This document shows positions 2,035 through 44,612 of a DNA stretch of 52,650 bases, one piece after another; the stretch's first letter is position 1; each line of letters begins with the position of its first letter. A model generated the notes under the pieces. That model saw nothing but the letters and a program-made list of their open reading frames with translations. It searched no databases and was not told the origin of the DNA. Both the position numbers and the translations under genes were made by a program. The DNA is from a virus (Duplodnaviria; Caudoviricetes), in the IMG/VR virus record IMGVR_UViG_3300046789_000054, positions 1 through 52,650 of that record, one strand, 5' to 3'.

Positions 2035-2346
2035 GTGATGCCCAAGGAACTGATCCACGACCAGGACCGCGACAGCAATCGCATGTTCGATCTGTTCGTC
2101 GGGTGGCTGCCGGATGGCTGCGAAGTGCAGATCGGCATCCAGTGCCGCGGGGAGGATGCCCGTCTCGGCGGCGGTGAGTACGAGTCGGTGTGGGCGTCTC
2201 TGGACGAAGCTGGTGTGCACCGGCTGATCAAGGCGGTCGAGCACGCACGGGCCCGGGCGTTCCCTGAGCAGCCGGCTGCGGTGAACAGCGGTCAGGGTGA
2301 GCCGATCTTCGTTGAGTTGGCAGACGGCAGAACCCTGACGTACTGA
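2035..2346 (+). CDS. Hypothetical protein
   Basis: Operon position, purine-rich RBS, protein-like composition. Confidence 0.6.
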   Translation: MMPKELIHDQDRDSNRMFDLFVGWLPDGCEVQIGIQCRGEDARLGGGEYESVWASLDEAGVHRLIKAVEHARARAFPEQPAAVNSGQGEPIFVELADGRTLTY

Positions 2347-2348
2347 CA

Positions 2349-2381
2349 GAGGCACAGAACAGCCCCCACGAATTCCAACCG
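2349..2381 (+). repeat. 33-bp direct repeat, left copy
   Basis: GAGGCACAGAACAGCCCCCACGAATTCCAACCG, identical to 3371-3403. Confidence 0.95.
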
Positions 2382-2426
2382 GTGTTACATACCGGTCATC
2401 GCTCTACCTATGATCTCGGAGACGAA

Positions 2427-3314
2427 ATGACGGCTACGCGACTCGGCTCCTTCGAGCTGAATTCAGTGACACTAGGTGACTGCCGCAAGCTCGTGCTGGA
2501 CCTCCCCGATGACAGCATCGATGTCGTAGTGACCAGTCCACCGTACTGGGGTCAGCGGCTGTCGGAGGGCAACGGTGTAGAGAGCGACCCTCGGCACTAC
2601 GTCGCCGAGCTCCGAGAGCTGTTCGCTGCCCTCATGCCCAAGATCAAGCCGGCTGGACTGGTCTGGATGAACCTCGGCGATGCTTACAACACGCCCATCA
2701 ATTGGCGGGAAGGCGACCACGCTTATAGCAGTCTGGGTCCCGACTCAAATGGTTTGCCAGCTACAAATTCCGCCTACACGAAGCCCCGCCACAGGCGGCG
2801 TGCGTACCTGGATCCCACGGTTCCCTGGTTGCAATACGGCAACTTGCTTAGCTTGCCTTACCGGCTCGTCATCGCAATGTCCGATGACGGGTGGCTGTTC
2901 CGCGGCGAGGTCATCTGGCGCAAGCGCAACCCGATGCCCGAAGGGCAGTGCCGGCGGCCCCATCGCCAGCACGAGTCTGTCTATCTGTTCGCGAGAACTG
3001 AAAGACATGCCTTCCGCACTAAGCCGCCGGTCGGCTCGGTGTGGGAAATTGGAAACGAAAAGATCGCCGGCCTTAGACACTTCTCACGCTTCCCGGTGGA
3101 GCTACCACGTCGGTGCGTCGAGGCGTACGGGCGAGCGGAACGAGACGTGGTCGTCCTAGACCCATTCAGTGGCTCCGGCAGTACCGGCGTTGCTGCCCTG
3201 CGCCTTGGCTGCTCGTACGTAGGCTTCGAGATAGACCCGGCGCAGGTGTTGGCATCGAACACGAGGCTGAGCAGTGTGGTAGCGGAGCATGCCGGGCTTG
3301 CCGCATCAGAGTGA
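2427..3314 (+). CDS. DNA methyltransferase, N4-C/N6-A beta class
   Basis: Motif IV 'VTSPPY' N-terminal and motif I 'VLDPFSGSGSTG' C-terminal; ATG 2427 after GGAG; more A/T-ending codons than neighbours. Confidence 0.9.
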   Translation: MTATRLGSFELNSVTLGDCRKLVLDLPDDSIDVVVTSPPYWGQRLSEGNGVESDPRHYVAELRELFAALMPKIKPAGLVWMNLGDAYNTPINWREGDHAYSSLGPDSNGLPATNSAYTKPRHRRRAYLDPTVPWLQYGNLLSLPYRLVIAMSDDGWLFRGEVIWRKRNPMPEGQCRRPHRQHESVYLFARTERHAFRTKPPVGSVWEIGNEKIAGLRHFSRFPVELPRRCVEAYGRAERDVVVLDPFSGSGSTGVAALRLGCSYVGFEIDPAQVLASNTRLSSVVAEHAGLAASE

Positions 3315-3370
3315 CGAAGCGGGTGCATTAGCGACGAGTGCCGCCAGTTCACCCATGTCAAGACAACGCC

Positions 3371-3403
3371 GAGGCACAGAACAGCCCCCACGAATTCCAA
3401 CCG
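3371..3403 (+). repeat. 33-bp direct repeat, right copy
   Basis: Identical to 2349-2381; forms the 5' arm and loop of the hairpin. Confidence 0.95.
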
Positions 3404-3415
3404 TGGGGGCTGTTC
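3379..3415. terminator. Intrinsic terminator hairpin between convergent genes
   Basis: GAACAGCCCCCACG / CGTGGGGGCTGTTC perfect 14-bp stem. Confidence 0.8.
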
Positions 3416-3434
3416 TTGTGCTCAGAAGGGGTTC

Positions 3435-3677
3435 TTACCCCACAGAAGGAAGCTCACCATGGTCGTCACCTCCCTGGCCTATCTGCGACGCGTACCGGTC
3501 TACGTCGCCTCCGTGGTACCGCAGCTCGCCCGTGGGCGTCACCCACGTGCGGACCCTGTTCCGTTCGGCCCACCCAGGGACGGTAGTGCGGTGTATCCGT
3601 CCCCACCGTAGGGCGACCTCGTGAGCGCGTAGCCACACCGCATCGCTTGGCCCGTCTGGGCTCGTCTCACCTGTCAC
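3435..3677 (-). CDS. BldC/Xis-like (MerR-type, HTH_17) DNA-binding protein, divergent from transfer operon
   Basis: 'WLRAHEVALRWGRIHRTTVPGWAERNRVRTWVTPTGELRYHGGDV' parallels the BldC pattern. GTG 3677 lies 6 nt after a TACGGT -10 (leaderless); ATG 3695 is the alternative start. Confidence 0.7.
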   Translation of the reverse strand: MTGETSPDGPSDAVWLRAHEVALRWGRIHRTTVPGWAERNRVRTWVTPTGELRYHGGDVDRYASQIGQGGDDHGELPSVG

Positions 3678-3683
3678 AGCCGC

Positions 3684-3767
3684 ACCGTACCGCATCTGTC
3701 GGGACTGTCGGGACTGTCGGAACGGATGCTCTTGCGTGAAGTGTCACCAGTGGCGCACACTGCGTAG
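3684..3767. promoter_or_regulatory. Divergent promoter region with three 9-bp direct repeats
   Basis: CTGTCGGGA, CTGTCGGGA, CTGTCGGAA at 3696-3722. Rightward TTGCGT(3732)-18-CACACT(3756)-6-ATG; leftward -10 TACGGT at 3684-3689. Confidence 0.65.
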
Positions 3768-4097
3768 ATGCCTACGGACCAGAGCACTGTCCAGACGGAC
3801 CACGGACCACGGACCACCCCGGACCGCTCCGGTCCCGGACCGCAGACCGCTCCGGTCCCGGACCGCAGACCAGATGAGGACCGCACCGGGAACACCCCGG
3901 TCCAGACCACCAGCAGGGACCACGGACCAGCGAGGAACCGGACTGCGCTGCTCGCAGGCATCGCAGCCGCAGCGCCCGGCCTGTACCTACTCGGATACGC
4001 CCTCGGGCGTCTCCACGTCACCGTCGTAGGCCAAGCACTCACCATCCTCGCCGCCGCAGGGACCGCCATCGCTGTCCTGGTCCGGTGGTCCCGGTGA
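3768..4097 (+). CDS. Small two-TM membrane protein (Spd-like) with repeat-encoded N-terminus
   Basis: Two C-terminal hydrophobic helices; GTGA overlap with next gene. Confidence 0.65.
   Translation: MPTDQSTVQTDHGPRTTPDRSGPGPQTAPVPDRRPDEDRTGNTPVQTTSRDHGPARNRTALLAGIAAAAPGLYLLGYALGRLHVTVVGQALTILAAAGTAIAVLVRWSR
3776..3930 (+). repeat. GGACC-rich array
   Basis: About 10 GGACC plus 3 GGTCC; CGGACCA x3 (3796-3816); exact 23-bp tandem duplication 3822-3844/3845-3867. Confidence 0.85.
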
Positions 4098-4984
4098 AAC
4101 GCCGCCGCGCGGTCTACCTCACACAGGAAGCCATCGGTCTTCTCCCGCCACTGGCCGCACTGGGCCTCGCAGGGTGGCTGCAGACCGAAATCGCACATGC
4201 AGTCCTCGGACTCCCATGGGTGTTCGCCTGGGTCCCGGCCGCGGCGATCGAAGGCGCCGCCGCGTACTGCGCAGTGCTCTACCACCGGCATCTCCTCGCC
4301 GGAGACTCCGCCTGGTCACTGCGGCTCGCGATGCTCATCTACGCCGGGGTGTCCGCTGGGTTGCTGTACTGGCGGTCTACCCAGACGGGTAAGCCGTGGG
4401 AAGTCGCGGCTGCTGTCGGCGGGCTCGCGTTGTCGGCGCTGTACCTGTGGGGCCGCCGGGCGCGTTGGATGCACCGGCAGGAGTTGCGGCGCGCTGGGCG
4501 TCTCGACAAGCAGGCCGTGCGGTTCTCCGTGCTGCGGTGGTTGATGTGCCCGGTGGAGACCCCCGGCGCGTTCCGCTTCGCGGTGAAGCACTCGATCGAG
4601 GACCCCACGGCCGCGCTGGAGCAGTACCGGTCCCGGCGGACTCGGAAGCCTAAGCGGACACCGGACCCGGCACCCACGGCGGCCCGACCCGGGACGTCGG
4701 CACGTGAAGCAGGAGGAACCTCAGTGGCGAAACCTGACCCCGGTCCGGCGACGCCGGTAGAGAGCCGCTTGCACCTGGTAGAGCGGCCCCGCCGGGCGCC
4801 CCGAGCGAACACCGTCGACCTTGAGGATCTGATCCGGACAGCAGCTGGTGCGTTCCCTGACCGGCTGCCCAAGGTGCGGGAGATCGAGGAGACCCTTGGT
4901 GTCCGGAGCCGCGGAACGGCCATGAAGATCCTCGGTGCGCTCCGTGATGCCCGCAACGCGGCGGCGGTGTCCGGTGACGGCTGA
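4094..4984 (+). CDS. DUF2637/SpdB2-like multi-TM plasmid spread protein with C-terminal HTH
   Basis: Four TM segments, 'RFSVLRW..CPVET..AFR' motif, Pro-rich linker, 'LPKVREIEETLGVRSRGTAMKI' HTH-like end. Confidence 0.7.
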   Translation: MKRRRAVYLTQEAIGLLPPLAALGLAGWLQTEIAHAVLGLPWVFAWVPAAAIEGAAAYCAVLYHRHLLAGDSAWSLRLAMLIYAGVSAGLLYWRSTQTGKPWEVAAAVGGLALSALYLWGRRARWMHRQELRRAGRLDKQAVRFSVLRWLMCPVETPGAFRFAVKHSIEDPTAALEQYRSRRTRKPKRTPDPAPTAARPGTSAREAGGTSVAKPDPGPATPVESRLHLVERPRRAPRANTVDLEDLIRTAAGAFPDRLPKVREIEETLGVRSRGTAMKILGALRDARNAAAVSGDG

Positions 4985-6179
4985 CATGGACATCCCGAAG
5001 GGAACACCTGAGTTCGCACCCGCGGACCGTGAGGTCGAGTACCGGGGGGTACCTGCTGGGCCGGCGGTCATCTCTTTCACGGAGCTGCTCGCTTCGGTCG
5101 CTTCGGTGCTGTGGTACTCGCTCGGCGCCGTGGGCCTGCTCATCGCGGCGACGGTAGGTGTAGCGGCACCTGCTGCGATGAGCAGGGCCAGACGTAGACG
5201 GAGCCGGCAGGCGACCACAGGCGGCCGGTCGCCGAGTCGGGCCGTGCGGTCTTCCGGGGGAGGGTCCGGGCGCCTCGGAAGTAGTGGCGGGCGGTCCGGT
5301 CGCGGCGGCAAGCGGTCCGGGTTCCCCGGATTCAGCGGTAGGAAGGCCGCAGGCATTGGACGCCAGGCAGGTGATCGCAGAGCTGTCCCGCGCAGGCCGG
5401 CGCTGGACAGAGGGGGGAAGCGGGGAGCGGGAAGGCTACCGGGATCTGGAACGGGGGCACTTTCTGCTCGGCGTGGGAGACGAGGGACTGGGCAACGTAG
5501 CGGCGCGGCCGGTCGCCGTGGTCTGTTCTCCCTGCCTTTCGGTCGCCGCGCCAGAGGCACCGGCGTGACCGGTCAGAAGCGACGAGCACCCGAGACCCGA
5601 CGACAGCACCGGCGCTTGCCGTCCCTGCTGAAGCGCCTCGGACCGAAGCCACCCAAGCAGCGCACCGGAACAGCATCCCGTCCCCCAGTAGCAGCCGGCG
5701 TACGCCGGATCAGCACACCGAAGACCCCAACGATGGCGCCGCCGCAGAACGTGGTGCCGCAGCCCAACCCCTCAACACCACCTATCACGACCGGACCCAC
5801 CCCGGGACCGGCGACACCCGGAGGCAACACCATGGCAGGACGGCTCGGATTCACTGACCTCGGCGACCAGTTCGTGGACCGCGCTTCACGGTTCGAGGTC
5901 GGCGACGGCGAAATGCTCGAAGCGATCAAGGAACTCGACAGCGTCGGCCCCGCAGTCGGCAACGTCGGGAAGGCCATGTCGATCCTCGCCCGGAAGATCG
6001 ATGACGAGATGCCGCTGGACGCCAAGGTGACCCGTGTCGCCGAAGCCGTCACCCGGTCCCTTTCCGCCGCCGCCGCCGCCGCGGAACTCATCGGTCCCAC
6101 GATCCGCAAGTCCCACTTCCACGACATCCACCGCAGCGAGGCGCCTCGGCCGGGTGAGAAGGGCTGGAACGTGCGGTGA
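4974..6179 (+). CDS. TraA-like plasmid transfer protein
   Basis: N-terminal TM, Arg/Gly-rich linker, helical C-domain ending 'HFHDIHRSEAPRPGEKGWNV' as in actinomycete plasmid genes preceding traB; GTGA-coupled to traB. Confidence 0.6.
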   Translation: MTADMDIPKGTPEFAPADREVEYRGVPAGPAVISFTELLASVASVLWYSLGAVGLLIAATVGVAAPAAMSRARRRRSRQATTGGRSPSRAVRSSGGGSGRLGSSGGRSGRGGKRSGFPGFSGRKAAGIGRQAGDRRAVPRRPALDRGGKRGAGRLPGSGTGALSARRGRRGTGQRSGAAGRRGLFSLPFGRRARGTGVTGQKRRAPETRRQHRRLPSLLKRLGPKPPKQRTGTASRPPVAAGVRRISTPKTPTMAPPQNVVPQPNPSTPPITTGPTPGPATPGGNTMAGRLGFTDLGDQFVDRASRFEVGDGEMLEAIKELDSVGPAVGNVGKAMSILARKIDDEMPLDAKVTRVAEAVTRSLSAAAAAAELIGPTIRKSHFHDIHRSEAPRPGEKGWNVR

Positions 6180-8245
6180 CTGCCCCCCCCGTCGTGAAAC
6201 CGCCGGCCGCGCCTCGACCACGCCGGACCCGCATCCCGATCGACTGGCGGGCCCGGCACGGCATGGTGTGGGGAGCCCTCAACGCGGGGCTCGCGCCGCT
6301 GACCATCGGCCTCGTTGTCGCTGCCATCGAGCGGCAAACCGGTGCGGTCATCCCCGCGTACCTGCCGGTCATCGGCGCGATCCTCGGGGCGTTCGCGACG
6401 ATCCTCGTCACCCTCGTGCACGACTCCGACGCTGGCCTCGAACCTGACCCTGGTCTGCTCACCTACCGGTGCCTGACTTGGTTCGGGTCCGGGGCGTGGC
6501 TCGCGTGGGCGTTCGCGACAGCCCCGTGGCGGGTCCCGCAGATGGCAACGCTCGTCATCGGGGCAGTTACTTTGGCATCCCTCGCGCCGCTCGCGAAACG
6601 CCGCCGCCGCCGGCAAGCCGATGCGCTCCTCCGCGGCGCCGCGAAGCGGAACCCGCTGGAACAGATCCGTGCGGCGTGGGAAGCGCGGCTGCTGCGGATC
6701 ACCCGGCTCCGCTGCGACGTCGTCGGGGTAGAGATGTGGCCATCGGGCACCGGGTACACCCTCGACGTGGACCCACCCGGCGGGAAGACCTGGAGAGACA
6801 TGCAGCAGTACCAGGACGAACTCGCCTCCGACTGCCGCCTCCCGCACGGCTGCGGAATAGCGGTCGGTGTCGGCCACGACCGCCGCGCCGTGCAACTCCG
6901 CGTCACCACGCAGAGCATCACCACGCCGGCAGCGGAACCACTCGACTTCGCGCCCCTGTCGATCCTCGATGGGCTCCTCATCGGCTACCAACGCGACGGG
7001 CAACCCCTCACCGCCGACATCCGGCAAGCGTCGTGGCTTCTCGGCGCGATGAAACGCAAGGGAAAGACGACGCTTCTGCACCGGCTCATCAGCCGGCTCG
7101 TTCGCTGCACCGACGCCGCAGTGTGGGTCATCGACTTCAACGCTGGTGGGCTGGGCCGGCCGTGGGCGACCCCATTCGTAGAGGGACGGGCGGCGCGGCC
7201 GGCCGTGGACTGGGTCGCGGGCACCCCGGAAGAAGCGGTGCTCATGGCACGGGCCGCCGTCGCAGTCGCGCTGGACCGGAAACGCCGCGGGTACGACCTG
7301 AAGCGTCTCCACAACACCACCCTCATGCCGGTCGGCACTGGGGCAGGGCCCAGCGACGGCCCCCCGGAGGTCGTGGTCGTTGGCGATGAATGCTCCGAGT
7401 TCATGGGCTCGTCCTCGCCGTACCGGGGTGCCCGGGACGCGATCGAGCAGTGCGTACGGATCGCGGGTGACGCCGCCGTGAACTTCGTGTTGAGCGTCCT
7501 CGAAGGAACCAGCGAGTCCGTTGCTCGCGCGGTCAAGGCGCAGTTCGCGAACCGGCTCGCGCTCACTATGAGCGATGAGGCTGAGGTGTCGTACATCCTC
7601 GACTACTCCCACCGCGGCGCGAAAGCTGTGAACCTCGAAGACCTACCTGGTCCAGGACACGGCTGGGCCCGAGTCGATGGCGCCGACACCCCGGTCCTGT
7701 TCGCGGTCCCGGACATCCGACCGGACCAGATCGATGAGACCGCGGTCCGGACCGCCGGTCTCAGACCAGGGCTGACCGCTGAGGACATCAGCGCAGTGGA
7801 CCGGGCACTTGGACCAGGTGTCTACGCTGCTCGTTGGACCAGGACCATCCGTGACGTATTCGGTGAGGGGACCACGATGACCGGACCGAAGGACCAGGAC
7901 CAGGGTTGGTCCGGACCGGTGAACGAAGACGCGGTCCTCGCTGAGCTCGCGGCGTCCGGGCAGGAACTCGCTGACGCCGTCGCGGACCTCCACGCCGGCA
8001 GCGGACCAGCGGTCCCGACCGATGGGGAGCTGGAGGCGCTCACCGAGACGACCAGTGGCCCGGACCGCATGGTAGAGATCATCCGTCACGCTGAGGCGGG
8101 GTTGCCTGCTGCGGAGATCCTGGAGCGGCTCCAATCGGAGGGCTACGACGTGTCCCGGGCGACTCTGTACCGGTGGCTGACCGAGGCCGTGGCCTGTTCG
8201 CAGCTCGTGAAACGCGGACCGTGCTACCTACACATCAGTGCGTGA
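6176..8245 (+). CDS. traB: TraB-type FtsK/SpoIIIE conjugative DNA translocase
   Basis: N-terminal TM helices, Walker A 'AMKRKGKTT', Walker B 'VVVGDE', 'QFANRLAL' Arg-finger region, 'PGHG', C-terminal wHTH 'VSRATLYRWL'. Confidence 0.85.
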   Translation: MTAPPVVKPPAAPRPRRTRIPIDWRARHGMVWGALNAGLAPLTIGLVVAAIERQTGAVIPAYLPVIGAILGAFATILVTLVHDSDAGLEPDPGLLTYRCLTWFGSGAWLAWAFATAPWRVPQMATLVIGAVTLASLAPLAKRRRRRQADALLRGAAKRNPLEQIRAAWEARLLRITRLRCDVVGVEMWPSGTGYTLDVDPPGGKTWRDMQQYQDELASDCRLPHGCGIAVGVGHDRRAVQLRVTTQSITTPAAEPLDFAPLSILDGLLIGYQRDGQPLTADIRQASWLLGAMKRKGKTTLLHRLISRLVRCTDAAVWVIDFNAGGLGRPWATPFVEGRAARPAVDWVAGTPEEAVLMARAAVAVALDRKRRGYDLKRLHNTTLMPVGTGAGPSDGPPEVVVVGDECSEFMGSSSPYRGARDAIEQCVRIAGDAAVNFVLSVLEGTSESVARAVKAQFANRLALTMSDEAEVSYILDYSHRGAKAVNLEDLPGPGHGWARVDGADTPVLFAVPDIRPDQIDETAVRTAGLRPGLTAEDISAVDRALGPGVYAARWTRTIRDVFGEGTTMTGPKDQDQGWSGPVNEDAVLAELAASGQELADAVADLHAGSGPAVPTDGELEALTETTSGPDRMVEIIRHAEAGLPAAEILERLQSEGYDVSRATLYRWLTEAVACSQLVKRGPCYLHISA

Positions 8246-8365
8246 GTCTCACCGTCTCACGTGTCTCACCGTCTCATGCCCCCATGAGACGCACGTTTCC
8301 GCAGGTCAACAACCCCCACCCCCTGAGACAGGCATCTGTCTCATGAGACAGTGAGACGGTGAGAC
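8246..8365. repeat. clt-like transfer locus (GTCTCA/TGAGAC array)
   Basis: GTCTCA at 8246, 8254, 8263, 8271, 8338; TGAGAC at 8285, 8324, 8344, 8352, 8360; about 8-bp period, directly after the traB stop. Confidence 0.8.
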
Positions 8366-8369
8366 AGCC

Positions 8370-8975
8370 ATGATGGGCACCAGCCACGCACTGTCCGGCG
8401 CTGCGGTCTGGCTCACCGGATGCGCCGCCACTACGGGTCTCGGGATGCACCCAGCAGCCGACGTCGTGATCCTCGGGACGGCGGTGTGCGCCTACTCCGC
8501 TCTGCTGCCAGATATGGATCATCAGGGGTCCCGGTCGGCCCGGTCCCTCGGGCTGCTGACGCTGGGCCTGTCCCATCTCGTGGGGGCACTCTCCCGCATC
8601 GCCTACGAACGGACCAAGACACACTTGGACCGGCCGAACCGGTCCGGTCACCGCGGTCTCACACACACGGTCCTAGCAGCTGTGGTCCTCGGCTGTCTGG
8701 TCTCGGCAGGGATGATGCTCGGTCCGGTCCCGGACCTGTGGTGGACCGGACTGCCGGTCCTGGTCGGCTGCCTGGTCCATGACTGCGGCGACGGCTGCAC
8801 GCACTACGGTGTTCCGCTGTTCTGGCCGGTCCTGATCCGGGGGCAGCGGTGGTACTGCGTGGGGACCCCACGGGTGTTGCGGTTCCGGACCGGCGGTCCA
8901 GTTGAGGCGGTCTTGGTGACGCCGGTCCTGGTCCTCAGCGCTGCCCTAGCTGGGTTGCTGGTCCTGGCTGGCTGA
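8370..8975 (+). CDS. YdjM-like membrane metal-dependent hydrolase
   Basis: 'MMGTSH', 'LLPDMDH', 'HRGLTHT', 'HDCGDGCT..GVPLFWP' motifs and TM helices. Confidence 0.85.
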   Translation: MMGTSHALSGAAVWLTGCAATTGLGMHPAADVVILGTAVCAYSALLPDMDHQGSRSARSLGLLTLGLSHLVGALSRIAYERTKTHLDRPNRSGHRGLTHTVLAAVVLGCLVSAGMMLGPVPDLWWTGLPVLVGCLVHDCGDGCTHYGVPLFWPVLIRGQRWYCVGTPRVLRFRTGGPVEAVLVTPVLVLSAALAGLLVLAG

Positions 8976-9012: not shown

Positions 9013-9186
9013 TCATGGGATGTCCTCCACGTTCTCTACCGTCTTCATCTCCTTGATACCGCCACGCCGGTTCACGACCACAGTCACAGGCTGATACTCA
9101 GGCAGGTCCTTGACAGCCATCAAGATCTCCGCAGCGGTCATACCCTGCTTCCGGTTCATCGCGTACGTCACAGTGGTTCGTCTCAC
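9013..9186 (-). CDS. Small hypothetical protein
   Basis: GTGA overlap with upstream HTH gene; 57 aa. Confidence 0.55.
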   Translation of the reverse strand: MRRTTVTYAMNRKQGMTAAEILMAVKDLPEYQPVTVVVNRRGGIKEMKTVENVEDIP

Positions 9187-10388: not shown

Positions 10389-10679
10389 CTACGCCGGCTC
10401 CCACCGGGCGCCGCGGATCCACCCATGATGGCCGCAGCGGGTGCACAGCAGCGACGGCGCGAGCGTCAACGGCTCCAGCGACTCGACCTGCCACACCGGC
10501 ATCCCAGGAAACGCTTCCGCGACGCCGGGCAGGTCGAACATGATGCTGCCCTGACAGCGGCCGCCACCATCGGCCCGGTCATGCTGCTCGACCAGGCCCG
10601 CCGGATCATGCCCCCGCCAGATGGTCAGGCGGATCGTCACCCCGTGGCCAATGGCCGCGACTCCCTCAGTCAGAGCCAC
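10389..10679 (-). CDS. Small DUF6527-like metal-binding protein
   Basis: C-terminal 'LTLAPSLLCTRCGHHGWIRGARW'; GTG overlaps end of upstream gene. Confidence 0.55.
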   Translation of the reverse strand: MALTEGVAAIGHGVTIRLTIWRGHDPAGLVEQHDRADGGGRCQGSIMFDLPGVAEAFPGMPVWQVESLEPLTLAPSLLCTRCGHHGWIRGARWEPA

Positions 10680-12448
10680 TGGCCGTCCGCACCACGCAGC
10701 CCGTACACCTGAATCGTGCCGGTCGTCATCCGCAGCGTCGGTGACCCGCTCGGGCTGGCGACGGTCGCGGCGAGGGACAGCCACCCGCCATCGGCGGGGA
10801 GCGGGTCGAGGAGCGCCGCGGGACTCCACATCTCGACCGGCGCACCGAGGTCGGCAGCGTTCGACAGGGCAGCGAGGATCTTCCCGCCCTGCATCATCCG
10901 AATCGTGTACGAGGCGCAGGACCCGGCTTGGAGGTTCCACCGGCCCGCGTGCCGAGCGAACAGGCGCTTCCCCGCGAACTCACCGGGGATCTCGACCTGG
11001 AACGCGGCGAGCCCGGTCTGCCCGGTGCCCAGGGCGGGAGTGACGAACGCCGGCCCGCCCCACCCGGCAGATGCGATCAGCACGAGCTCGGGCGCATCGG
11101 CCCGGGCGTGAACGACGTCATCCGCGGCGGCGAGGTCGACCACGAGGACACCGCCGGCCTGATTCGCCCAGCAGTAGTCGCTGGCGCTCCACTTGTTCAC
11201 CGGCAGCGCCGGCACCGGGAGGTCTTCCTGCTGGCTCGGGCACACGACGACTTCGATCCGGCCACGTTCCAGCACCGTGCGCGCCGCGATGCTGAACTCG
11301 CAGCCGTACAGCGGCCAGTTCAGCACGCTCGCCTCGGCCATATCACCGCCCGGAGTGATATCGCGGAGCATCAGCGACCCGCCCCGCTCGGGGTTGTGCC
11401 GATACAGCAGGTACACCTGGCCGCCGTAGCAGGCGACCGCCGGCCGGGACAGTTCCGCGTTGACCCCGTTCAACCCGGACCCGTAGCTCATGGCGTGGAG
11501 CCAGTCGGTCAGTACCTCGTTCACCCAAGCCGACCCGTCCCAGTACAAGTGCGCGTACTGCGTCCGCGGGTCCGTCGGTGAGCTCCACAGCTCGTTGCCG
11601 ATGTGCGGGTGGCCGGCGTCATCGACGGCCATGCCGCACGAGTTCAGCAGCCCCGAGTTCGTCGGGGCCGTGTTCAGGGCGGGCGCCCAGGCGGCGTGTG
11701 TCAGCGGCACCGTCAGCGGGGTCCCGTCCATCTGCTGCCACGTGGAGCCGTGGTCCAGGGACCGGGCGTGGCACACATCGTTGTTGCTCGACGCGGGTCC
11801 GTCCCGCCAGATCACCGCGATGTGGATGGAGTCATCCGGGCCGACACCGATGTAGTGCAGGTACGGGGACTCCCCGGACGCGACCGCGTCAACGAGCGGG
11901 TTCCCGACCCGCGCCCAGGTCTTCGTCGCGGTGTTGTACCTGTTCAGGTAGACGTTCCCCAACCCCGACACACCATCGCGGTAGGTGACCAGGAGCGTTC
12001 CGTCGCCGCACGTCACGAACTGCGGGTAGGTGACCTGCGCTTCCTGCGTCCCTACCATGGCCGGCGCGACCCAGGTAGTGATGTCTCTCGGGTTCGCCGA
12101 CCGGGCGTAGTGCAGCGGGACGTTGTGGTGGTTCCCCGCGAGGTGGAGGTACCCGTCGGCGTCCATCGCCATCGACCAGGTGTTGTGCCCATCAGCGAGG
12201 TTCGGCAACGCGAACTCGGTCACCATCGCAGGGATCGCGGAGAGGTCTTTCACCTGCCACCGACCGTACCGCAGGACCCGCTTCCCCACGACCGGCTGGA
12301 GCGACCCGTTCAGCCACACCGCGTACCGCACCTCACGGCCAGACTCGACCGTGACCAGTGTGTTGTCCTGCGTGAACGGCTCCCCGTTCACCGCCCGCTG
12401 ACCACCCGCAGTGCCGGGAAACAGATCAAGCTCAATCGCCTGCGTCAC
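10670..12448 (-). CDS. BNR-4 repeat beta-propeller protein (candidate depolymerase/tail spike)
   Basis: 'DGHNTWSMAMDADGYLHLAGNHHN', 'TYPQF', Asp-box 'ARSLDHGSTW'; AGGGAG RBS before GTG 12448. Confidence 0.7.
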   Translation of the reverse strand: MTQAIELDLFPGTAGGQRAVNGEPFTQDNTLVTVESGREVRYAVWLNGSLQPVVGKRVLRYGRWQVKDLSAIPAMVTEFALPNLADGHNTWSMAMDADGYLHLAGNHHNVPLHYARSANPRDITTWVAPAMVGTQEAQVTYPQFVTCGDGTLLVTYRDGVSGLGNVYLNRYNTATKTWARVGNPLVDAVASGESPYLHYIGVGPDDSIHIAVIWRDGPASSNNDVCHARSLDHGSTWQQMDGTPLTVPLTHAAWAPALNTAPTNSGLLNSCGMAVDDAGHPHIGNELWSSPTDPRTQYAHLYWDGSAWVNEVLTDWLHAMSYGSGLNGVNAELSRPAVACYGGQVYLLYRHNPERGGSLMLRDITPGGDMAEASVLNWPLYGCEFSIAARTVLERGRIEVVVCPSQQEDLPVPALPVNKWSASDYCWANQAGGVLVVDLAAADDVVHARADAPELVLIASAGWGGPAFVTPALGTGQTGLAAFQVEIPGEFAGKRLFARHAGRWNLQAGSCASYTIRMMQGGKILAALSNAADLGAPVEMWSPAALLDPLPADGGWLSLAATVASPSGSPTLRMTTGTIQVYGLRGADGQWL

Positions 12449-12461
12449 GGAGCGCTCCCTA

Positions 12462-13778
12462 CTAGCCGAGGTCAATCACGAACAGGGAACGCTTCCCCGT
12501 CGGAGTCAAGACTCCAGTACCACCGACGCGCTGCGCGAACATCCGGAGAGTCTGCGTACCCGTCAGCCCACTCACCGTGTCGCCGATCACCACACCCACT
12601 CGACCTACGGACCCGACCGCGAGCGTCGCGAAACCCAACACAGCAGCCACAGACGGCGACCCGCTCGTAGGCGTGGACCCTCCCCCATTGCGGATATTCA
12701 GGTCCCACGTGTCACCCGCGACGCTGCCGTTCGGCAGCAGCCCCATCAGGAGCACGAGATAGGTGTGAGACGCGATCGCGGTGAACACGTAACTGCCCAG
12801 GACAGCATCAGCGGTGTCCGTGGTACCGCTCGTCGCGGTACCGTTGCTCGCTGTTTTCGTCGCCGCCGCAGGGATCAGCGACGGCAGCGGGTCAGACCCG
12901 CCCGTAGCGTGCGACGCGGCATGCGCAGTCGGCGTCCGAGCGTCCGAGAGGCGACTGTCGTTTCCCTGCGCCGCAGTGCCGCTGCCCGAGCCGTACACCA
13001 CGGCCAAGGTGCGGTCCGCGCTCAGGTCACCGCCGCCACTCAGACCAGTACCAGCAGACACCAGGCGGGTACTGGGTGGCACCCCGAGGTTGGTCCGGGA
13101 TGTGACTACGGACGCGACATCGGACAGGTTCGCCGACTTCAGCATCCGCAGCAGGTCGGCGGTGTTCTGCGCCGTCGAGACGGGTTTGTTCGCGTCGCTG
13201 GTGTTGTCGACGTTCCCGAGGCCAACATCGCTCTTCGTCAGGACAACGGTGCCGCTCATCCCGTTGACGGTGTTCACCCCGCCAGCGGGGCCGGTAGGTC
13301 CAGCGGGGCCGGTAGGTCCAGCGGGCCCGGTGAGCCCCGTAGAGCCAGTCGGGCCGGTAGGCCCTGCAGGGCCTACCGGACCAGTGGGTCCGGGCGGTCC
13401 GGGCGGCCCAGCGATGATGATCGCGGACGGCTCGATCGATGGGGCGATGTCCGCGAGTTCCAGAGTCGACGCCGAATACGGCAGCTGAAGCGCGAACTTC
13501 GCTTCCAGCACGTCCGTGTGGACGTGTACGTAGTACGCCCAGTCAGTCGGTGACACATCGGGGGAGTCGTTCGCGATCAGGTCGATCGTGGCCTCGCCTG
13601 CAGCGTCGAGGACAGCGGTCCGTTCGGTAGGCCCAACGAGGTAGTTGTCGTCGGTGTCGCGGAGGTATCGGTACTCCCCGCGGAACGTGACGGTTCCGCC
13701 TAGGGCGGCGGGTGTTCCGTCGTCTCCGGTGATCGCGATGTGCAGCGTCGTCTCCAGGACGGCTGCGGGTAGTGGCAT
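12462..13778 (-). CDS. Tail fibre / minor tail protein with collagen-like repeats
   Basis: About 14 Gly-X-Y triplets followed by '[27 protein letters not shown]' fibre motif. Confidence 0.85.
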
Positions 13779-13915: not shown

Positions 13916-14257
13916 TCAGGCCGCTGAAGCGGGTGCCTTCGCGGTCACCTGCGGACGCACGAAGATCACCGCGATCGTCATCGACACCGCCGACAGCAGC
14001 AGCGCCTGCTTCTCCGCAGGCAGGTCATACCCGAACGCCACAGCCGCGTAGAAAACTGCCTGCACAACACCCAGCAGCACCGGAAGGAACCGGTCGGATT
14101 TCAGCCCGAGCGCAGCGAGCATCGTGAGCCCACCCAGGACCGTGTTCACCGTCCCGACCTGGTCATCGGACCAGTGCAGCCAGAACGCCGACAGGACAGA
14201 CAGCAGAGAAGCCACAGCAGCGATGATCGCCGCCGGCTCCCGGTCGAACAGCTTCAT
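13916..14257 (-). CDS. Holin
   Basis: Four TM helices, 'REPA' start and 'RPQVT' end typical of actinophage holins; in lysis cluster. Confidence 0.75.
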   Translation of the reverse strand: MKLFDREPAAIIAAVASLLSVLSAFWLHWSDDQVGTVNTVLGGLTMLAALGLKSDRFLPVLLGVVQAVFYAAVAFGYDLPAEKQALLLSAVSMTIAVIFVRPQVTAKAPASAA

Positions 14258-14562
14258 GACGGTTCCTCTCGGTCAGGGCGCCGAAGATGCGCCAACTGTG
14301 TACGGATCAGTATCGACGCCCGCCACCACCCCGCCGCGGCGAACGCACCGAAGAACAGCAGCAGCAGCACGGGGTGGCCCGGGTAGTCACCGAACACAGC
14401 CCGCGCCAACGTCAGCAGCAGCACGACAGCCTCGATGCTCATGAACGTCATCAGGTGCCAGCCCATCTCCGACCGCCACCACGGCGTCAACGCGAACAGG
14501 GCAACGAACGTGCCGATGCCGCCCAACGCGACAACAGTCAAGACCAGTAGAGCAGTGTTCAT
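14254..14562 (-). CDS. Membrane protein (putative holin)
   Basis: Three TM helices, 'WWRSEMGWHLM'. Confidence 0.65.
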   Translation of the reverse strand: MNTALLVLTVVALGGIGTFVALFALTPWWRSEMGWHLMTFMSIEAVVLLLTLARAVFGDYPGHPVLLLLFFGAFAAAGWWRASILIRTQLAHLRRPDREEPS

Positions 14563-14762
14563 GCGTCCCCCCGGAGCGCCTTGTCCATCAGCTCAGAGAA
14601 GTGATTCTTCCGTCTGAGCTCCAACAGTGAATCCGTGACCCGGTGGATCCGCGCCCATCGAGTCGCCTGCTCACTGAGCTTCCTGCTCGCGGCTTCCAGC
14701 GCTTCCGCGGCCTCATCACCGCACGTAGGTGCGGTGTCGTTCCGGACTTCGTCTTCGGTCAT
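14559..14762 (-). CDS. Lysis-cluster small protein
   Basis: 'LRRKNHFSELM' C-terminus; coupled on both sides. Confidence 0.65.
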   Translation of the reverse strand: MTEDEVRNDTAPTCGDEAAEALEAASRKLSEQATRWARIHRVTDSLLELRRKNHFSELMDKALRGDA

Positions 14763-15160
14763 CGGGACCCCTTGCTCCGTGTCCCCGCCGGCAGCGCATG
14801 GATGAACTGCTCGATCGTCTCGAACCCATCCAGGAGCGTCCCGAGCTGCCGATCGGTCACGTCCGCGCGAGCCGCATGCATCTCAGCGGTCGTCTTCCAC
14901 TGCTGCTCACGGACCTTCGACTCTTCGATGCGGTCCTCAAGCTGCGCGACGATCTGCTCCACGGTACTTCTCGGCATCCACCGCCCCGTAGTAATAGCGG
15001 AGGAAACGGTCCGAAGCCCTACAATGACGGTCGTAACGAGACCAAACAGCAAGGCACCGAACACGTACCACAGCCACGCTGGGCCAGAGTCCGGCAGGCT
15101 GGCCGCAGCAACCCCCCGTGCTGCGGCCAGCCATGCCTTCCCATCCGCCCATCCGGTCAT
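14759..15160 (-). CDS. Membrane protein with coiled coil (lysis cluster)
   Basis: One TM helix plus heptad-rich tail. Confidence 0.7.
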   Translation of the reverse strand: MTGWADGKAWLAAARGVAAASLPDSGPAWLWYVFGALLFGLVTTVIVGLRTVSSAITTGRWMPRSTVEQIVAQLEDRIEESKVREQQWKTTAEMHAARADVTDRQLGTLLDGFETIEQFIHALPAGTRSKGSR

Positions 15161-15867
15161 CAGCTCGGAGGCACCGCACCGACAACCGGACCGAACGTCT
15201 CCACGTCAGCGACCTCAACGGTCTTCCGACCGAGCGCAGCCTCCCATGACTTCGCAGCCGCGCCGGTCCTGATCCACTCCCGGGTGCGTTTCCCGGCGGC
15301 GTCGAACACCACCAGGTACACCGGGGCCGTGTCCTTCTTCCGGACGAGTAGCGGTGTCATGTCGTCATCTCCTGTCGGTAGGACGGGTGTCGGGATCTCA
15401 TCAGGGAACCGTTGGCCGTTCGCGACCCAGCGGAGAAACCGCAGCAGCAGGTCGCTGTCTACCGAGCCGTTCTCGAAGCTCAGGTGTGCGTGCGAGTCTC
15501 CGGAGTACCGCGGTTTCAGGGTGCCGGCTACAGCCGCACGCCAGTTCTCGGCTGTCTGGATGTTCCAGTGCCTGTTCAGAACGTTCAGGTACTTCAGCCC
15601 AGCGAGCTCGCGGCGGCGCCAGGACCGGCGGATGAACGTCTCCAGCAGCGCCAGCGTTGCCGTGGTCGCGCCGATGTCTTCTGCGTGGATTTCTCCCTGG
15701 GTTGGGTAACCGAACTTCCCGACGTGGGTAGAGCGGCAGGTGTGATCACCGGCTCCCGCCTGGTGCGCGTCATCGCCGAACGTGCCGGAGTCCGTCAGCT
15801 CGGGCCTGGTGACGGCCTTCACCACCCGCAGGTTCGCCGCGACGTTCGCCGCGAGGACGCAGCTCAT
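15160..15867 (-). CDS. Endolysin, putative M15-like zinc peptidase
   Basis: 'GTFGDDAH..GDH...HAEDI...YSGDSHAHLSF' (His/Asp/HxH), Pro linker, position before holins. Confidence 0.7.
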   Translation of the reverse strand: MSCVLAANVAANLRVVKAVTRPELTDSGTFGDDAHQAGAGDHTCRSTHVGKFGYPTQGEIHAEDIGATTATLALLETFIRRSWRRRELAGLKYLNVLNRHWNIQTAENWRAAVAGTLKPRYSGDSHAHLSFENGSVDSDLLLRFLRWVANGQRFPDEIPTPVLPTGDDDMTPLLVRKKDTAPVYLVVFDAAGKRTREWIRTGAAAKSWEAALGRKTVEVADVETFGPVVGAVPPS

Positions 15868-16031
15868 AGCGGGGTCTCCGCCGCAGCGGCTTTCCCGGCC
15901 GCCCGGTAGGCAGCCGTGAACTCTTCGAGCTCGTCTGCGGTCAGAACACGGTCCTCGTCCAGGTCCGGCGCCTCCACCTCAGCGTTGCTGAAGTCCGGGT
16001 GTAGACCGTTGACCTGCTCGTTCGCGCTCAT
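15864..16031 (-). CDS. Small acidic hypothetical protein
   Basis: Strong AAGGAGG RBS; ATGA coupling to endolysin. Confidence 0.6.
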   Translation of the reverse strand: MSANEQVNGLHPDFSNAEVEAPDLDEDRVLTADELEEFTAAYRAAGKAAAAETPL

Positions 16032-16045
16032 AGCCCCCTCCTTAG

Positions 16046-16654
16046 TCACTGGGAAAGCACCCCGAACGCCACCATCGTCACTTCCGCGGTGACGGGATGG
16101 ACAGGTGCGGTTACCCCGGCTCCGGACATCGCCGTGTTCCGGATCGCCGCAGAAACGAGCAACGTACCGCCGGCTGGGACACGCGCGATCAACACACGGT
16201 TCGCTTGCCCGTTCCAGGTCAGCGTCGTCAAACCGGCCCCGAACATGTCCTCAGATGCGACGTTCGTGTACACCAGTCCCGCGCCGCCGGTCGACACCCC
16301 CAGCGACACATGCACCCCCGACAGGGAAGGAATCGCTGTCGACCAATTCGCCCGGATCACGACGATGCAGTCCAGCGGCGCCACCGTTGACGGGTTGATC
16401 AGAGTGGCATCGTGCTGCGGGTAGGTCTGGTTCGCCCCGGCCGCGAGATCAGCGTTGAAGGTTTGCGCGCCCTGCGCAGACGTAAGCGTGTACACGTCTT
16501 TCGGCGGAGTCCACAACCCCAACGCCGAATCCACCGCCAACCCGTTGCCCGCCGCGATCGACCCCGCGAACGGCCACGCCGCTGCCCGACGTGGCCCCCG
16601 CAGCTGCAACACCCCGTTCGTGACCTGGAACTCCACATCCACACAGACATCCAT
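16046..16654 (-). CDS. Minor tail protein
   Basis: TGATG-coupled; beta-rich Ala/Gly/Thr composition; position. Confidence 0.65.
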   Translation of the reverse strand: MDVCVDVEFQVTNGVLQLRGPRRAAAWPFAGSIAAGNGLAVDSALGLWTPPKDVYTLTSAQGAQTFNADLAAGANQTYPQHDATLINPSTVAPLDCIVVIRANWSTAIPSLSGVHVSLGVSTGGAGLVYTNVASEDMFGAGLTTLTWNGQANRVLIARVPAGGTLLVSAAIRNTAMSGAGVTAPVHPVTAEVTMVAFGVLSQ

Positions 16655-17055
16655 CAGGTCAGCCCCTTCGCGATGTCCCAGACCCGCCACCGGTTCGCCG
16701 CCACGTCATACATCGCGTGGTAGATGTCCGTTAGCCCCGATGAAACAGCGGTGACGCTCAGCCCGGTCGCGAGGACGAACCCGCCCGCGCCAGCCGTCAG
16801 CGTCGGTGTCCGGGCGCCACCGGAGGCCCGCAGCGCCCACACCGCCTGCTGCCCATCCGCGGGGTTCGTGGGAGCCAGCAGCGTGCGGTTCCCGGCCATC
16901 AGCAACCGGAACGAGTCCGACAGCGAAGCGTCTGTAGCGACCGTTGCCCCATCGACCAGATCCACCGGGGGGCGGAGCTGCCGCAGGTTCACCGCGCCGG
17001 TCTGCCCCTGGACCGAATCGACCATCCCGGTCGGGCATCCGCAGCGAGCCATCAA
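16654..17055 (-). CDS. Minor tail protein
   Basis: 'MARCGC..VDSVQGQTGAVNL' and 'NRTLLAPTNPADGQ' fibre-like motifs. Confidence 0.65.
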   Translation of the reverse strand: MMARCGCPTGMVDSVQGQTGAVNLRQLRPPVDLVDGATVATDASLSDSFRLLMAGNRTLLAPTNPADGQQAVWALRASGGARTPTLTAGAGGFVLATGLSVTAVSSGLTDIYHAMYDVAANRWRVWDIAKGLT

Positions 17056-22700: not shown

Positions 22701-23206
22701 GCGGCGGCGTCCAGCGCAGCCGTCTTCGACAGGCCGAATGAGGTCGCAGCGGTCTGAGCCCACTTGGTGACCGCGGCGGCGTTCCGCCCAAAGATCACGT
22801 TGCTCTTGTTCACCGTCTCCGACAGGTCCGACGCCAGCTTGATCGTGGAAGACACGAACGACGCGATCCGGTCAACAGCGAACGCGGCAGCGATAGCCCC
22901 AGCGAACCCAGTGAGGACCGACTTGAGGCGCCCACTGGTGGACGACAGCCCATCAGCAGCAGCGGCACCGGCCTGCTTCCCAGCCCGGTCGGCTTCCCTC
23001 GTCAGGGTCCTCCCGAGAGCCTTACCTGCGTTCGTGCCGGCGGCGGCCGCGTCCTTCGTGATCCCGTCGGTGTGCTTGTCGAGGGCCTTCCGCGCCGCCA
23101 ACCCAGCCTTGTCCGTCGCCGCGACGAGCCCCCTACGCAGATCAGGGCCGACCTGGTCAGTCTCAGCGATGATCTCGACCGCTGCCTCCGCCAGGGACGC
23201 CGCCAC
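19733..23206 (-). CDS. Tape measure protein with C-terminal peptidase-like domain
   Basis: 1157 aa, Ala-rich helical, about 11-aa Trp/Phe periodicity; 'YHGQGLAADL...HFSHVHVA'. Confidence 0.92.
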   Translation of the reverse strand: MAASLAEAAVEIIAETDQVGPDLRRGLVAATDKAGLAARKALDKHTDGITKDAAAAGTNAGKALGRTLTREADRAGKQAGAAAADGLSSTSGRLKSVLTGFAGAIAAAFAVDRIASFVSSTIKLASDLSETVNKSNVIFGRNAAAVTKWAQTAATSFGLSKTAALDAAASLGNMFQQLGIGGPRAVKMSQGVVKLAADLGSFNNLETADVLARIQAGFRGEFDSLQALIPNINAARVETEALSITHKKNAKSLTAAEKATATLAIIQRDGRAAANDFAETSGGLANSQKILSARLDDTKAKIGAGLLPIMQRLLGFVADVGVPAFERLAQWVQQNSTTISAWAQTISGAVLVALRTLGGAIATVVSWTQTSVQWLREHEKTAKVLAVVLGILTGIYLLHRVYLTALAVAQAAVAAKTAVMTVAANAQRVAMVAWSGVMALVTAAQWAYSTAANSALLATIRSTTATVASSIATKAVAAATAAWTVVQWALNAAMTANPIGIIIAIIVALVVAIVLAYKNSETFRNIVQAAWSGIQKAAVWAWGILQPILLNIWTALKFLGGVFVWLYQNVIRPIWAAIALAIQIAMVIIKVWFGLAQVWLKILGAAFMWLWENVIQPVWAAMQVAAGVVWGAVQFWFGVIQAGLKVLGTWFTWLYQTVILPVWAGIKAAIDFAWRGIQGIWLGIQIGIAWLVARFRWFQGIVLMVWNGVRQAIANGWAGIKRIFEIFASFIQDQVVARFKRGVAGIAAAWASIKEAAKAPVRFVVETILNNGILAAARKIGSLFNISGASGWKVSLPAGFARGGQIPGRPSHTDNMLAPVASGEFVVNTRQTGKYLPLLEAINAGKLRGYATGGLVGSRGGPAGGPFDFLANPLGALRGFAAKFSRTPGGAIGGALAGVGRRLLTGIIDWIKDKVETVGAIFSGGPASLGSKPGSSIGAILAVAQRFNPAARLSSGFRPGDPGYHGQGLAADLIGGGSAGMARIAKGFYAIANRLLELIHSPSWFVKNGRKVGASFYRSVFDQHFSHVHVAARKDALSFDSAGVLPPGLSTVYNGTGGPEALFSLEQLRVLQPKPVLTDEQWASIGRRVRGGDGAAAGFGARLGQDPIPTPATRRRGQDDPPGGPASRGGDTYHVYSPATDPLIVAHKVAATVARRV

Positions 23207-29975: not shown

Positions 29976-30066
29976 CGTGTTGCCTCCGGGGCGAAGGGTG
30001 TACACCCGGCTCGCGGCGCAGCGGTGTTGATGCTCTCAGGAGTCAGAGTAGCCCACAGGGACTCAG

Positions 30067-34679: not shown

Positions 34680-34684
34680 GCGGG

Positions 34685-42322: not shown

Positions 42323-42485
42323 TCGTGTCTCCTCGGTGTGTCTGTTCGCGGGCCGCGCGTCCGAGCATGGGCTGCGAAGGCGTCGGGTCGCGCTTCCAGG
42401 ATCCCGGCCCGTAGGTCCTTGGTGGGGTTGGTGCGCTGGTTCCGGGGAGGTCTGTTCGGCGCTGCCCGGAACCAGCCTACACACG

Positions 42486-42514: not shown

Positions 42515-42526
42515 CTGTAGAATCGT

Positions 42527-44605: not shown

Positions 44606-44612
44606 GATGGCC

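Follow-up and report, generated by a model that had tools for sequence, protein, structure and literature searches.

What is a plasmid-type DNA transfer cassette doing in the genome of a tailed phage? The question is raised by positions 3435–8975 of a soil virus record in IMG/VR (IMGVR_UViG_3300046789_000054), which we analysed over its whole length of 52,650 bp; this whole stretch is called the window here. The record is classed as linear, with a CheckV completeness of 81%. The locus is a compact plus-strand gene set with one small divergent gene. Its central gene encodes a translocase of the kind that pumps double-stranded DNA (dsDNA) between cells in actinomycete plasmids, and an array of short repeats follows that gene. 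A preliminary description had proposed a candidate conjugative phage on this basis, and judged from the sequence that reading appears reasonable. We take 3435–8975 to be a plasmid-type cassette for dsDNA transfer and spread, carried by a siphophage of a soil actinomycete with a circular map of ~52.6 kb and working by the mechanism proposed below, and give this reading a probability of roughly 0.6. The module is very probably a homologue of the plasmid Tra module; whether it transports the genome of the phage under natural conditions we see as evenly balanced.

The translocase is a protein of 689 amino acids (aa). Its Walker A and Walker B motifs read GAMKRKGKT and VVVVGDE, and residues G296, K297, D404 and E405 are invariant in 63 aligned sequences. 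Hydropathy analysis places hydrophobic N-terminal segments at residues 33–51, 63–81 and 122–140. The AlphaFold2 (AF2) model of the protein (pLDDT 88.6) has N-terminal helices at 30–55, 62–86, 92–114 and 120–156, after which come a domain rich in beta structure, the P-loop core and, at the C-terminus, a winged helix of the order H-H-H-E-E (helices 628–638, 645–654 and 661–673, strands 677–680 and 683–686; pLDDT ~95). Matches of the protein to helix-turn-helix (HTH) models in Pfam are weak (E 0.06–0.11). Among known structures, Foldseek ranked the FtsK motors 2ius, 2iut and 6t8b best (E 5.5e-18 to 1e-15, ~410 columns), next TcpA of pCW3 (1e-14) and then EccC/EssC and HerA (1e-7). At the level of sequence models, the sole match was phrog_31069 ("FtsK/SpoIIIE-like", 2.3e-73), and searches of NCBIfam and of PDB sequences with the protein returned nothing. 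Two of its homologues passed the FtsK_SpoIIIE cut-off (pSQ10 with 28.1 bits and locus L019 with 30.4 bits). The preliminary description had called this gene product a TraB FtsK-like protein with a winged HTH, and the N-terminal transmembrane (TM) part, the FtsK motor fold, the invariant Walker motifs and the predicted C-terminal winged helix are all in keeping with this.

Translated nucleotide searches (tblastn) with the translocase recovered 33 plasmid records, 26 of which were from Streptomyces, together with eight phage records, namely those of the Streptomyces phages Galactica, Hiyaa (two), Spocter and Keanu, of the Thermobifida phage P1312 and of ZL12 (two). Identities in the phages were 31–35%, except for ZL12 at 23.5%. 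The family is large: when 1.84 billion cluster representatives were searched with a profile, 10,388 matched at E ≤ 0.001, 1,131 at E ≤ 1e-10 and 544 at E ≤ 1e-30, and most of the best 150 matches were full-length proteins of ~650–790 aa. Homologues with a known context came solely from actinomycete plasmids and phages. The closest of those with context were on pSQ10 (Nocardiopsis), pDSM40587 (Streptomyces mobaraensis), S. longwoodensis unnamed3 and pTH1 (Thermobifida), at 28–36% identity over 67–78% of the query (tblastn). In an unrooted tree of 18 translocases, built without an outgroup, copies from plasmids and phages are intermixed; P1312, locus L012 and pTH1 form one group (support 100/99), and the window copy stands alone on a long branch. 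A nucleotide-level search of the module against the phage collection gave no match, a scan of viral contigs with a single-protein query found no close relative, and one scan of bacterial genome contigs found no relatives, while the viral-contig scan with an alignment query returned 11 loci.

The translocase shares its motor fold (alpha and beta domains) and, by prediction, a C-terminal DNA-reading winged helix with chromosomal FtsK/SpoIIIE. Unlike those proteins, it has no long linker and no sequence-level match in Pfam or PDB, and it sits on a mobile element with Spd-like partners and its own adjoining repeat array. Identity with chromosomal FtsK or SffA was considered and ruled out, because every homologue with context lies on a plasmid or phage with Spd-like partners.

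Those partners are part of a conserved triad, in the order polytopic membrane protein (in many cases one with a true DUF2637 domain), accessory-domain protein and translocase. We found the triad in pSQ10, in pDSM40587, in the linear S. longwoodensis plasmid (where ParA and MobF lie alongside), in pZL12 (genes 73-72-71), in phage Hiyaa, in the replicon NBC_01177 and in IMG/VR viral contigs, and it recurs across unrelated phage backbones. pSQ10, pDSM40587, S. longwoodensis unnamed3 and pTH1 have the same triad gene order as the window; they differ from it in being plasmids, which lack virion genes and carry ParA, MobF or rep genes instead. A literature search for pSQ10 returned no paper, and transfer by these plasmids is not known to have been characterised.

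The accessory protein marks this arrangement. The C-terminal ~96 aa of the 414-aa protein (nucleotides ~5883–6173) form a conserved domain that ends H..D..R..APR..E..WNV, for which we built a hidden Markov model (HMM) from seven domain copies in six proteins. In 17 of 19 loci, the gene that immediately precedes the translocase encodes a protein ending in this domain (six of the 17 proteins being the seed); pZL12 gene 72 (two copies, 1.9e-20) and pSQ10 (1.9e-12) are among them, and the model missed the domain in the remaining two loci, L021 and L022. The model also matched the linear S. longwoodensis plasmid (5.4e-47). AF2 models the domain as a two-helix hairpin (pLDDT 73), and its best ESM Atlas score was 0.81, with no usable lead. 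Its use as a marker of the module type is new, and it picks out the module in annotations where labels now read "hypothetical" or "FtsK-like". Taken together, tblastn, blastp, the domain HMM and synteny agree with the earlier proposal that the module is homologous to the transfer modules of actinomycete plasmids.

The first gene of the triad, which encodes a 299-aa membrane protein, was less straightforward to place. It matches phrog_10376 (1.3e-14), is homologous to gp98 of phage Hiyaa (blastp 6e-13) and has seven relatives at 43–57% identity on contigs of 1.2–59 kb, four of these contigs being 42–59 kb long. Hydropathy gives one segment at a strict threshold and about four at a relaxed one (10–41, 39–55, 70–96 and 107–123). 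DUF2637 was detected below threshold in two of nine members of its family (best E 0.0011), and hhalign against DUF2637 proteins gave a probability of 1–3%. In the ESM Atlas, DUF2637 is present in 20 of the 30 clusters nearest to the protein (score 0.92), with SpdB clusters at 0.89, which serves as a lead only. The gene occupies the slot held by true DUF2637 genes in NBC_01177, pDSM40587, the S. longwoodensis plasmid and loci L012, L016 and L022. The DUF2637/Spd-like label proposed earlier therefore stands in part: the DUF2637 model itself (PF10935) does not recognise the protein, but position, the roughly four segments called at the relaxed threshold and the ESM Atlas lead point to a putative SpdB/DUF2637-like protein.

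Directly after the translocase lies the array that the preliminary description had likened to clt, the transfer site of Streptomyces plasmids. It opens 1 nt past the stop codon with four direct 8-bp units, GTCTCAC(C/G), followed by inverted TGAGAC copies. The array holds 10 of the 27 GTCTCA/TGAGAC hexamers of the window, where the remainder of the first 12 kb would predict ~0.09 per 150 bp. Folded as RNA, the array reaches −66.7 kcal/mol (z = −8.08), and none of 200 shuffles folds as well. With direct 8-bp and inverted repeats immediately behind the translocase gene, the clt-like array is present as a sequence feature. The available text of two sources describes comparable sites. The clt of pWTY27 comprises the final 16 bp of the tra gene (688 aa) and 159 bp beyond, contains four TGACACC copies and inverted repeats and is bound by Tra, and those of pIJ101 and pJV1 combine direct and inverted repeats (PMC3583192); the direct 8-bp repeats of clt regions are recognised by TraB (PMC4447253). 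As in the window, a clt of the pWTY27 type has, by its published description, short direct and inverted repeats at or after the 3' end of the gene. By analogy, the array matches published clt sites in both placement and make-up.

Repeats of this kind accompany several homologues. pSQ10 has nine GTTAC/GTAAC copies, direct and then inverted, starting 4 nt past the stop; in P1312, repeats of the GTCAC type run over the translocase stop and beyond it; and in Hiyaa, (A/G)TCACA repeats lie 1.8 kb upstream of the translocase. In a k-mer scan of 18 loci, arrays at the other loci lay elsewhere or were not found. A very clean, stop-adjacent palindromic array with a plasmid parallel in pSQ10 is new. As a separate observation on related loci, viral contigs L017, L018 and L021 carry CCGTACG arrays at ~6700–7300, in which 150 bp contain as many as 17 CCGTAC hexamers (15 CCGTACG heptamers) and a 21-kb locus 54–71 heptamers, ~5 kb upstream of the translocase stop; contig L020 has a GGTACC array in place of CCGTACG. 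The gene behind the window's array had been called a YdjM-like hydrolase, and its Pfam match (Table 1) leaves that assignment secure. YdjM homologues lie 1–2 kb downstream of the translocase in four of the 18 related loci searched (two confirmed by Pfam), and this recurrent neighbour is likewise new.

Is the cassette really part of the phage? Contigs from the probable source sample in Logan tile the module region without a single difference. A relative of ~97% identity is present in three runs of another study, with a word depth of ~136–170 in one run. Its 10,154-bp contig covers 3842–9015 and continues to 13212 in the tail-fibre genes, and a second contig bridges the left junction by joining 1877–2342 to 3370–3857. 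A 41.3-kb contig of the relative starts at window position 13302 and ends at 342. Since the second-study contigs join the module to the tail-fibre genes, and the two ends of the window to each other, this is neither a chimera nor a fragment. Continuity across 3.4 and 9.0 kb, which the preliminary description had proposed as a check, was looked at in this way: contigs of the relative, with even depth, cross both points. Two candidate explanations were rejected. Chimeric assembly is countered by independent contigs in which, at ~97% identity and with even depth, the module has the same position, and insertion of an actinomycete integrative and conjugative element (AICE) is ruled out by the absence of an integrase (six-frame search) and of a Rep gene beside the module.

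Neither the tyrosine integrase family PF00589 nor the serine recombinase/resolvase family PF00239 matched in any of the six frames of the window, and the controls of this search were detected in 14 of 14 and 13 of 14 reference genomes. The hallmark genes of AICEs (integrase, RepSA/RepAM/prim-pol, Nudix) were not found beside the module with Pfam, PHROGs or NCBIfam. The earlier statements that no AICE-type integrase or rolling-circle rep gene lies beside the module, and that the module belongs to the phage, thus agree with what we found, the latter through contigs spanning the left junction and the stretch from module to tail fibres and through a window with no integrase or resolvase.

The relative also shows where the region varies. 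A stretch of 1,027 bp at 2343–3369, which includes a methylase gene (2382–3314), is replaced by five bases, so the N6/N4 methylase beside the module was gained or lost recently; the relative also has ~787 extra bases at 9013–9015, in the stretch that separates the YdjM gene from the small genes after it.

The rest of the genome is arranged as in a siphovirus (gene layout from GC-frame analysis, families from PHROGs and Pfam). Virion genes occupy the minus strand from ~10.7 to 44.8 kb and include, besides those in Table 1, head-tail adaptor, minor tail and fibre genes. Full head, tail and lysis genes had been claimed. The large terminase, portal, head and tail genes and two holins were recovered, but neither an endolysin nor a small terminase was recognised among the window proteins scanned. 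The plus-strand early genes run from ~49.5 kb across the end of the window to ~10 kb, in the order RecE-like exonuclease, Xre-type HTH, O-like replication initiator, HNH, N6/N4 methylase and then the transfer module. An open reading frame (ORF) at 52347–52649 with a wHTH-like N-terminus and an open 3' end reads in frame into ORF 3–473, whose C-terminus matches replication-initiator PHROGs; ACCCAGA iteron-like repeats (1–38) lie inside this initiator gene at the junction of the window ends, like an origin within an O-type gene. Because the initiator ORF spans the ends and the relative's contig bridges them, the two ends are neighbours and the map is circular.

All the module items listed in the preliminary description were found where it had placed them, and its tightly coupled gene junctions are there: a 13-nt overlap (4097/4085), a stop at 4984 followed by an ATG at 4986, and a GTGA overlap of 4 nt (6179/6176). 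The divergent gene is present, but its matches, of the MerR/BldC type of HTH, are weak (a BldC-type HTH in NCBIfam, E 0.0042 and 16.9 bits against a cut-off of 77, and phrog_1969, 3e-4); the protein has no Pfam match, and a regulator role is possible from its position. The 9-bp tandem repeat next to it is one unit shorter in the ~97% relative. In the second repeat cluster, CGGACC occurs 8 times per 150 bp against 0.44 expected (k-mer scan), and the relative has one extra 7-bp unit; the cluster may act as an operator, a leader or a further cis site. In the 109-aa ORF, the first ~35 codons consist of these tandem DNA repeats. That 7-bp difference disrupts its N-terminal frame, and the ORF has no alternative in-frame ATG, GTG or TTG, which makes its start, or its reality as a gene, uncertain; it has no family match in Pfam, PHROGs or NCBIfam. 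Of the two-TM protein proposed at this place, the two hydrophobic segments hold, with the start, or the gene itself, uncertain.

Table 1. Features of the transfer module and of the virion genes in the window (positions in the 52,650-bp window).
Feature	Position	Strand	Basis
Divergent gene, 86 aa, possible HTH regulator	3435–3695	−	ORF and weak HTH matches
Tandem 9-bp repeat CTGTCGGGA x2.8, divergent promoter region, operator-like	3696–3720		TRF
109-aa ORF, two C-terminal hydrophobic segments (61–79, 86–104), start uncertain	3768–4097	+	Hydropathy
Second repeat cluster, ACGGACC x3.3 and 23-bp unit x2.2, GGACC/GGTCC-rich	3795–3871		TRF
Membrane protein, 299 aa, SpdB2/DUF2637-like by position and architecture, C-terminal HTH-like tail	4085–4984	+	
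Membrane-anchored Arg/Gly-rich protein, 414 aa	4935–6179	+	Longest ORF; likely start ATG 4986
Tra-like dsDNA translocase, 689 aa: TM, FtsK-type motor, C-terminal winged helix	6176–8245	+	
clt-like array, 124-bp imperfect palindrome with two inner hairpins	8246–8369		Repeat and k-mer scans
YdjM-family membrane metal-dependent hydrolase, 201 aa	8370–8975	+	Pfam PF04307 3.7e-25; phrog_20744 5.8e-31
Two holin-like genes	13916–14562	−	PHROGs/Pfam
Tape measure	19733–23206	−	PHROGs/Pfam
Major tail protein	26447–27136	−	PHROGs/Pfam
Major head protein	28254–30005	−	PHROGs/Pfam
MuF-like head protein	30582–32957	−	PHROGs/Pfam
Portal	33222–34886	−	PHROGs/Pfam
Large terminase TerL	37850–39403	−	PHROGs/Pfam

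Several features elsewhere in the genome were recorded alongside the module. The holin neighbours at 13916–17055 (133, 235, 214 and 133 aa) match no endolysin family even at E = 0.1, and the lysin may be of an undescribed type. In the minus-strand block by the terminase, 40760–44671 contains three or four DNA methyltransferase genes together with Mom-like and DUF1643 genes; the methyltransferase/Mom-like run is heavy anti-restriction equipment. A tail-region protein at 10670–12475 has a BNR_4 (sialidase-like beta-propeller) domain (9.6e-65), and the adjoining gene at 12462–13778 has collagen-like repeats. A perfect 21-bp tandem repeat (x2.1) at 36430–36474 is intergenic, upstream of the small genes before the terminase, and may serve packaging or regulation.

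Whether such a cassette has been seen at work in a phage before is best answered by the Streptomyces plasmid-phage pZL12 (phage ZL12; NC_013420), which is likewise a tailed-phage genome with an actinomycete-type transfer locus. Its gene 71 (725 aa, FtsK-like by the note in the record) is homologous to the window translocase (blastp 1.9e-15) and is the sole FtsK-like gene found in the record; of its neighbours 72 and 73, gene 73 encodes a polytopic membrane protein parallel to the window's 299-aa protein. The transfer locus of pZL12 was reportedly named traA–traC in the abstract of Zhong and colleagues from 2010. From gene 71 as the only FtsK-like gene in the record, and from its neighbours, we infer that genes 71–73 are the published traA–traC. 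The preliminary description had regarded pZL12 as a partial precedent with a distinct gene set. That view has to be revised: with genes 71–72 homologous to the window translocase and accessory protein, pZL12 is a full precedent. [quoted passage not shown]

Cultured actinophages provide a second comparison. The translocases of Hiyaa, Galactica, Spocter, Keanu, P1312 and NBC_01177 are 31–35% identical to that of the window over 62–83% of the query in the phages and 78% in NBC_01177. They have the same accessory domain upstream, and Hiyaa and P1312 have GTCAC-type repeat clusters nearby; they differ in their virion modules and genome sizes, and P1312 and NBC_01177 have serine recombinases where the window has none. 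NBC_01177 is listed as "plasmid unnamed1" of a cultured Streptomyces sp. strain. It is a circular replicon of 51,758 bp and a complete phage genome with the same cassette, having both terminase subunits, portal, HK97 protease, capsid, tape measure, a LysM protein and a serine recombinase. The phage records name the cassette gene an FtsK-like translocase and give it no transfer role. Recent Streptomyces phage papers, in the text available, mention "FtsK-like" genes in passing, with possible use in replication or as host-like factors, and within the text returned by our full-text literature search no paper assigned a TraB/clt role to phages besides pZL12. What is new beside pZL12 is a small backbone that carries the module and has no integrase, with no partition genes seen.

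Other genes near related cassettes were also recorded. GGDEF diguanylate-cyclase genes lie near the cassette in the viral contigs L015 (603–1910) and L017 (3894–4490) and in the S. longwoodensis plasmid (L025, 30539–31222), which hints at tampering with cyclic di-GMP control of development. In viral contig L022, an ORF at the edge (1–753) encodes a toxin domain of the DddA-like dsDNA deaminase kind (3.6e-16); the DUF2637 and translocase genes are a few kb away.

How would the cassette work? As the phage carries a plasmid-type pump, its partners and a repeat array, it may also spread without virions. The mechanism that follows concerns binding, pumping, regulation and any plasmid state, and is built on the fold, motifs, synteny, array and physical linkage observed above. 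The translocase would bind the GTCTCA repeats through its winged helix and form a ring in the membrane. Together with its membrane partners it would pump the unprocessed dsDNA phage genome, either replicating or as a prophage-plasmid, through septal cross-walls or where hyphae touch. In this way the genome could spread from cell to cell without virions, on top of ordinary infection. Between such events, the divergent HTH gene and the promoter repeats may keep the cassette repressed. The Tra proteins for which this kind of pumping is described are similar in outline: TraB of pSVH1 and TraA of pWTY27 (688 aa, two TM segments) are, by published description, of similar size and combine TM segments, an FtsK-like motor and a winged HTH. 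The window differs from them in its phage setting, in having no GntR-type TraR as kil-kor partner and in its lack of a Pfam FtsK_SpoIIIE match.

A number of observations weigh against this reading. FtsK_SpoIIIE (PF01580) does not match the translocase even at E = 10, nor does DUF2637 (PF10935) match the 299-aa protein at that threshold. The only relative with an experimental tie, pZL12 gene 71, is 24% identical to the window translocase over 310 aa (blastp). A stop-adjacent array occurs in two of the 18 loci in the k-mer scan, or three with P1312, and the palindrome at 8246–8369 might just as well serve as an origin, a terminator or an operator. Scans of the window proteins gave no match to the GntR family (TraR-type repressor), no ParA or ParB (PHROGs/Pfam) and no Nudix gene beside the module or elsewhere in the window (Pfam/PHROGs). 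Mycelial growth of the host is an assumption. Nor need the cassette imply a plasmid lifestyle, since it is present in plaque-isolated phages of ~82 kb (the Hiyaa group). The phage-plasmid label used in the preliminary description goes beyond the findings: no partition genes were seen, and there is no sign of a plasmid state. Finally, no other 5.2-kb segment deviates as much as the module in tetranucleotide usage, though the margin is narrow (r 0.949 vs 0.952–0.980, median 0.969, for the 37 other segments), which is weak evidence for a foreign origin some time past.

The nearest rival is that the cassette acts within one mycelium, carrying DNA across septal cross-walls or into spores in the manner of Spd or SffA proteins, and not in mating. 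We consider this unlikely. With neither integrase nor resolvase in the window, and no sign of a partition gene, a non-integrated genome would need another route of inheritance, and the cassette also occurs in plaque-isolated phages. In the available text of Thoma et al. (2015), TraB and Spd proteins are proposed to drive intramycelial spreading, and phage homologues of SpdB2 might spread phage DNA (PMC4447253). On the other hand, the homologous plasmid modules are transfer loci, as far as the available text of PMC3583192 describes them, and spreading and mating are not separable by sequence, plasmid TraB being described as doing both in the text at hand (PMC4447253). If spreading within the mycelium were the true function, the gain would be a larger infected territory or secured inheritance of a non-integrated prophage.

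A further possibility takes the transfer reading one step beyond what we propose. The phage may be a free replicon that relies on the Tra/clt cassette for inheritance and for spread through the mycelium; the cassette would be a lysogeny device that replaces integration and partition and adds a second, virion-free route. We think this improbable, and offer it as a speculation. If it were true, dual-mode actinophages would be common in soil and not a pZL12 oddity, because 544 representatives were found at E ≤ 1e-30 and the cassette occurs on unrelated backbones.

Less likely than intramycelial spreading, and to us very unlikely, is a role of the translocase in phage DNA metabolism or host takeover, such as genome resolution or segregation, superinfection exclusion or interference with septation, the array being a loading site, origin or terminator. 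The array is a very stable hairpin (z = −8.08) in an intergenic, terminator-like position, and HerA defence ATPases are among the related motors found by Foldseek; but the HerA fold match is far poorer (1e-7 vs 5e-18 for FtsK and 1e-14 for TcpA), all relatives with known context sit in a plasmid or phage triad of the Tra type with membrane partners, and a membrane anchor and SpdB-like partner would be unexpected for a replication factor. That the cassette is a mere passenger (a recent AICE or plasmid fragment) or an assembly artefact is highly improbable, for although it exceeds all other segments, by little, in tetranucleotide deviation and lies in a plastic region (methylase 2382–3314 absent and ~787 bp added at 9013–9015 in the relative), it occupies the same position in evenly covered second-study contigs of ~97% identity, neither an integrase nor a Rep gene nor an att-like flank was found, the module lies within the early-gene strand block between replication and tail genes, and the cassette recurs on unrelated phage backbones.

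The reading we prefer thus remains a plasmid-type transfer and spread cassette that belongs to the phage. The cassette and its array form a small, testable unit. If the cassette works as proposed, phages of mycelial actinomycetes would have two routes of transmission, capsids and the pumping of DNA between hyphae. This would change models of host range, lysogeny and gene flow among the antibiotic producers of soil, and it would blur the boundary between phage, plasmid and AICE.

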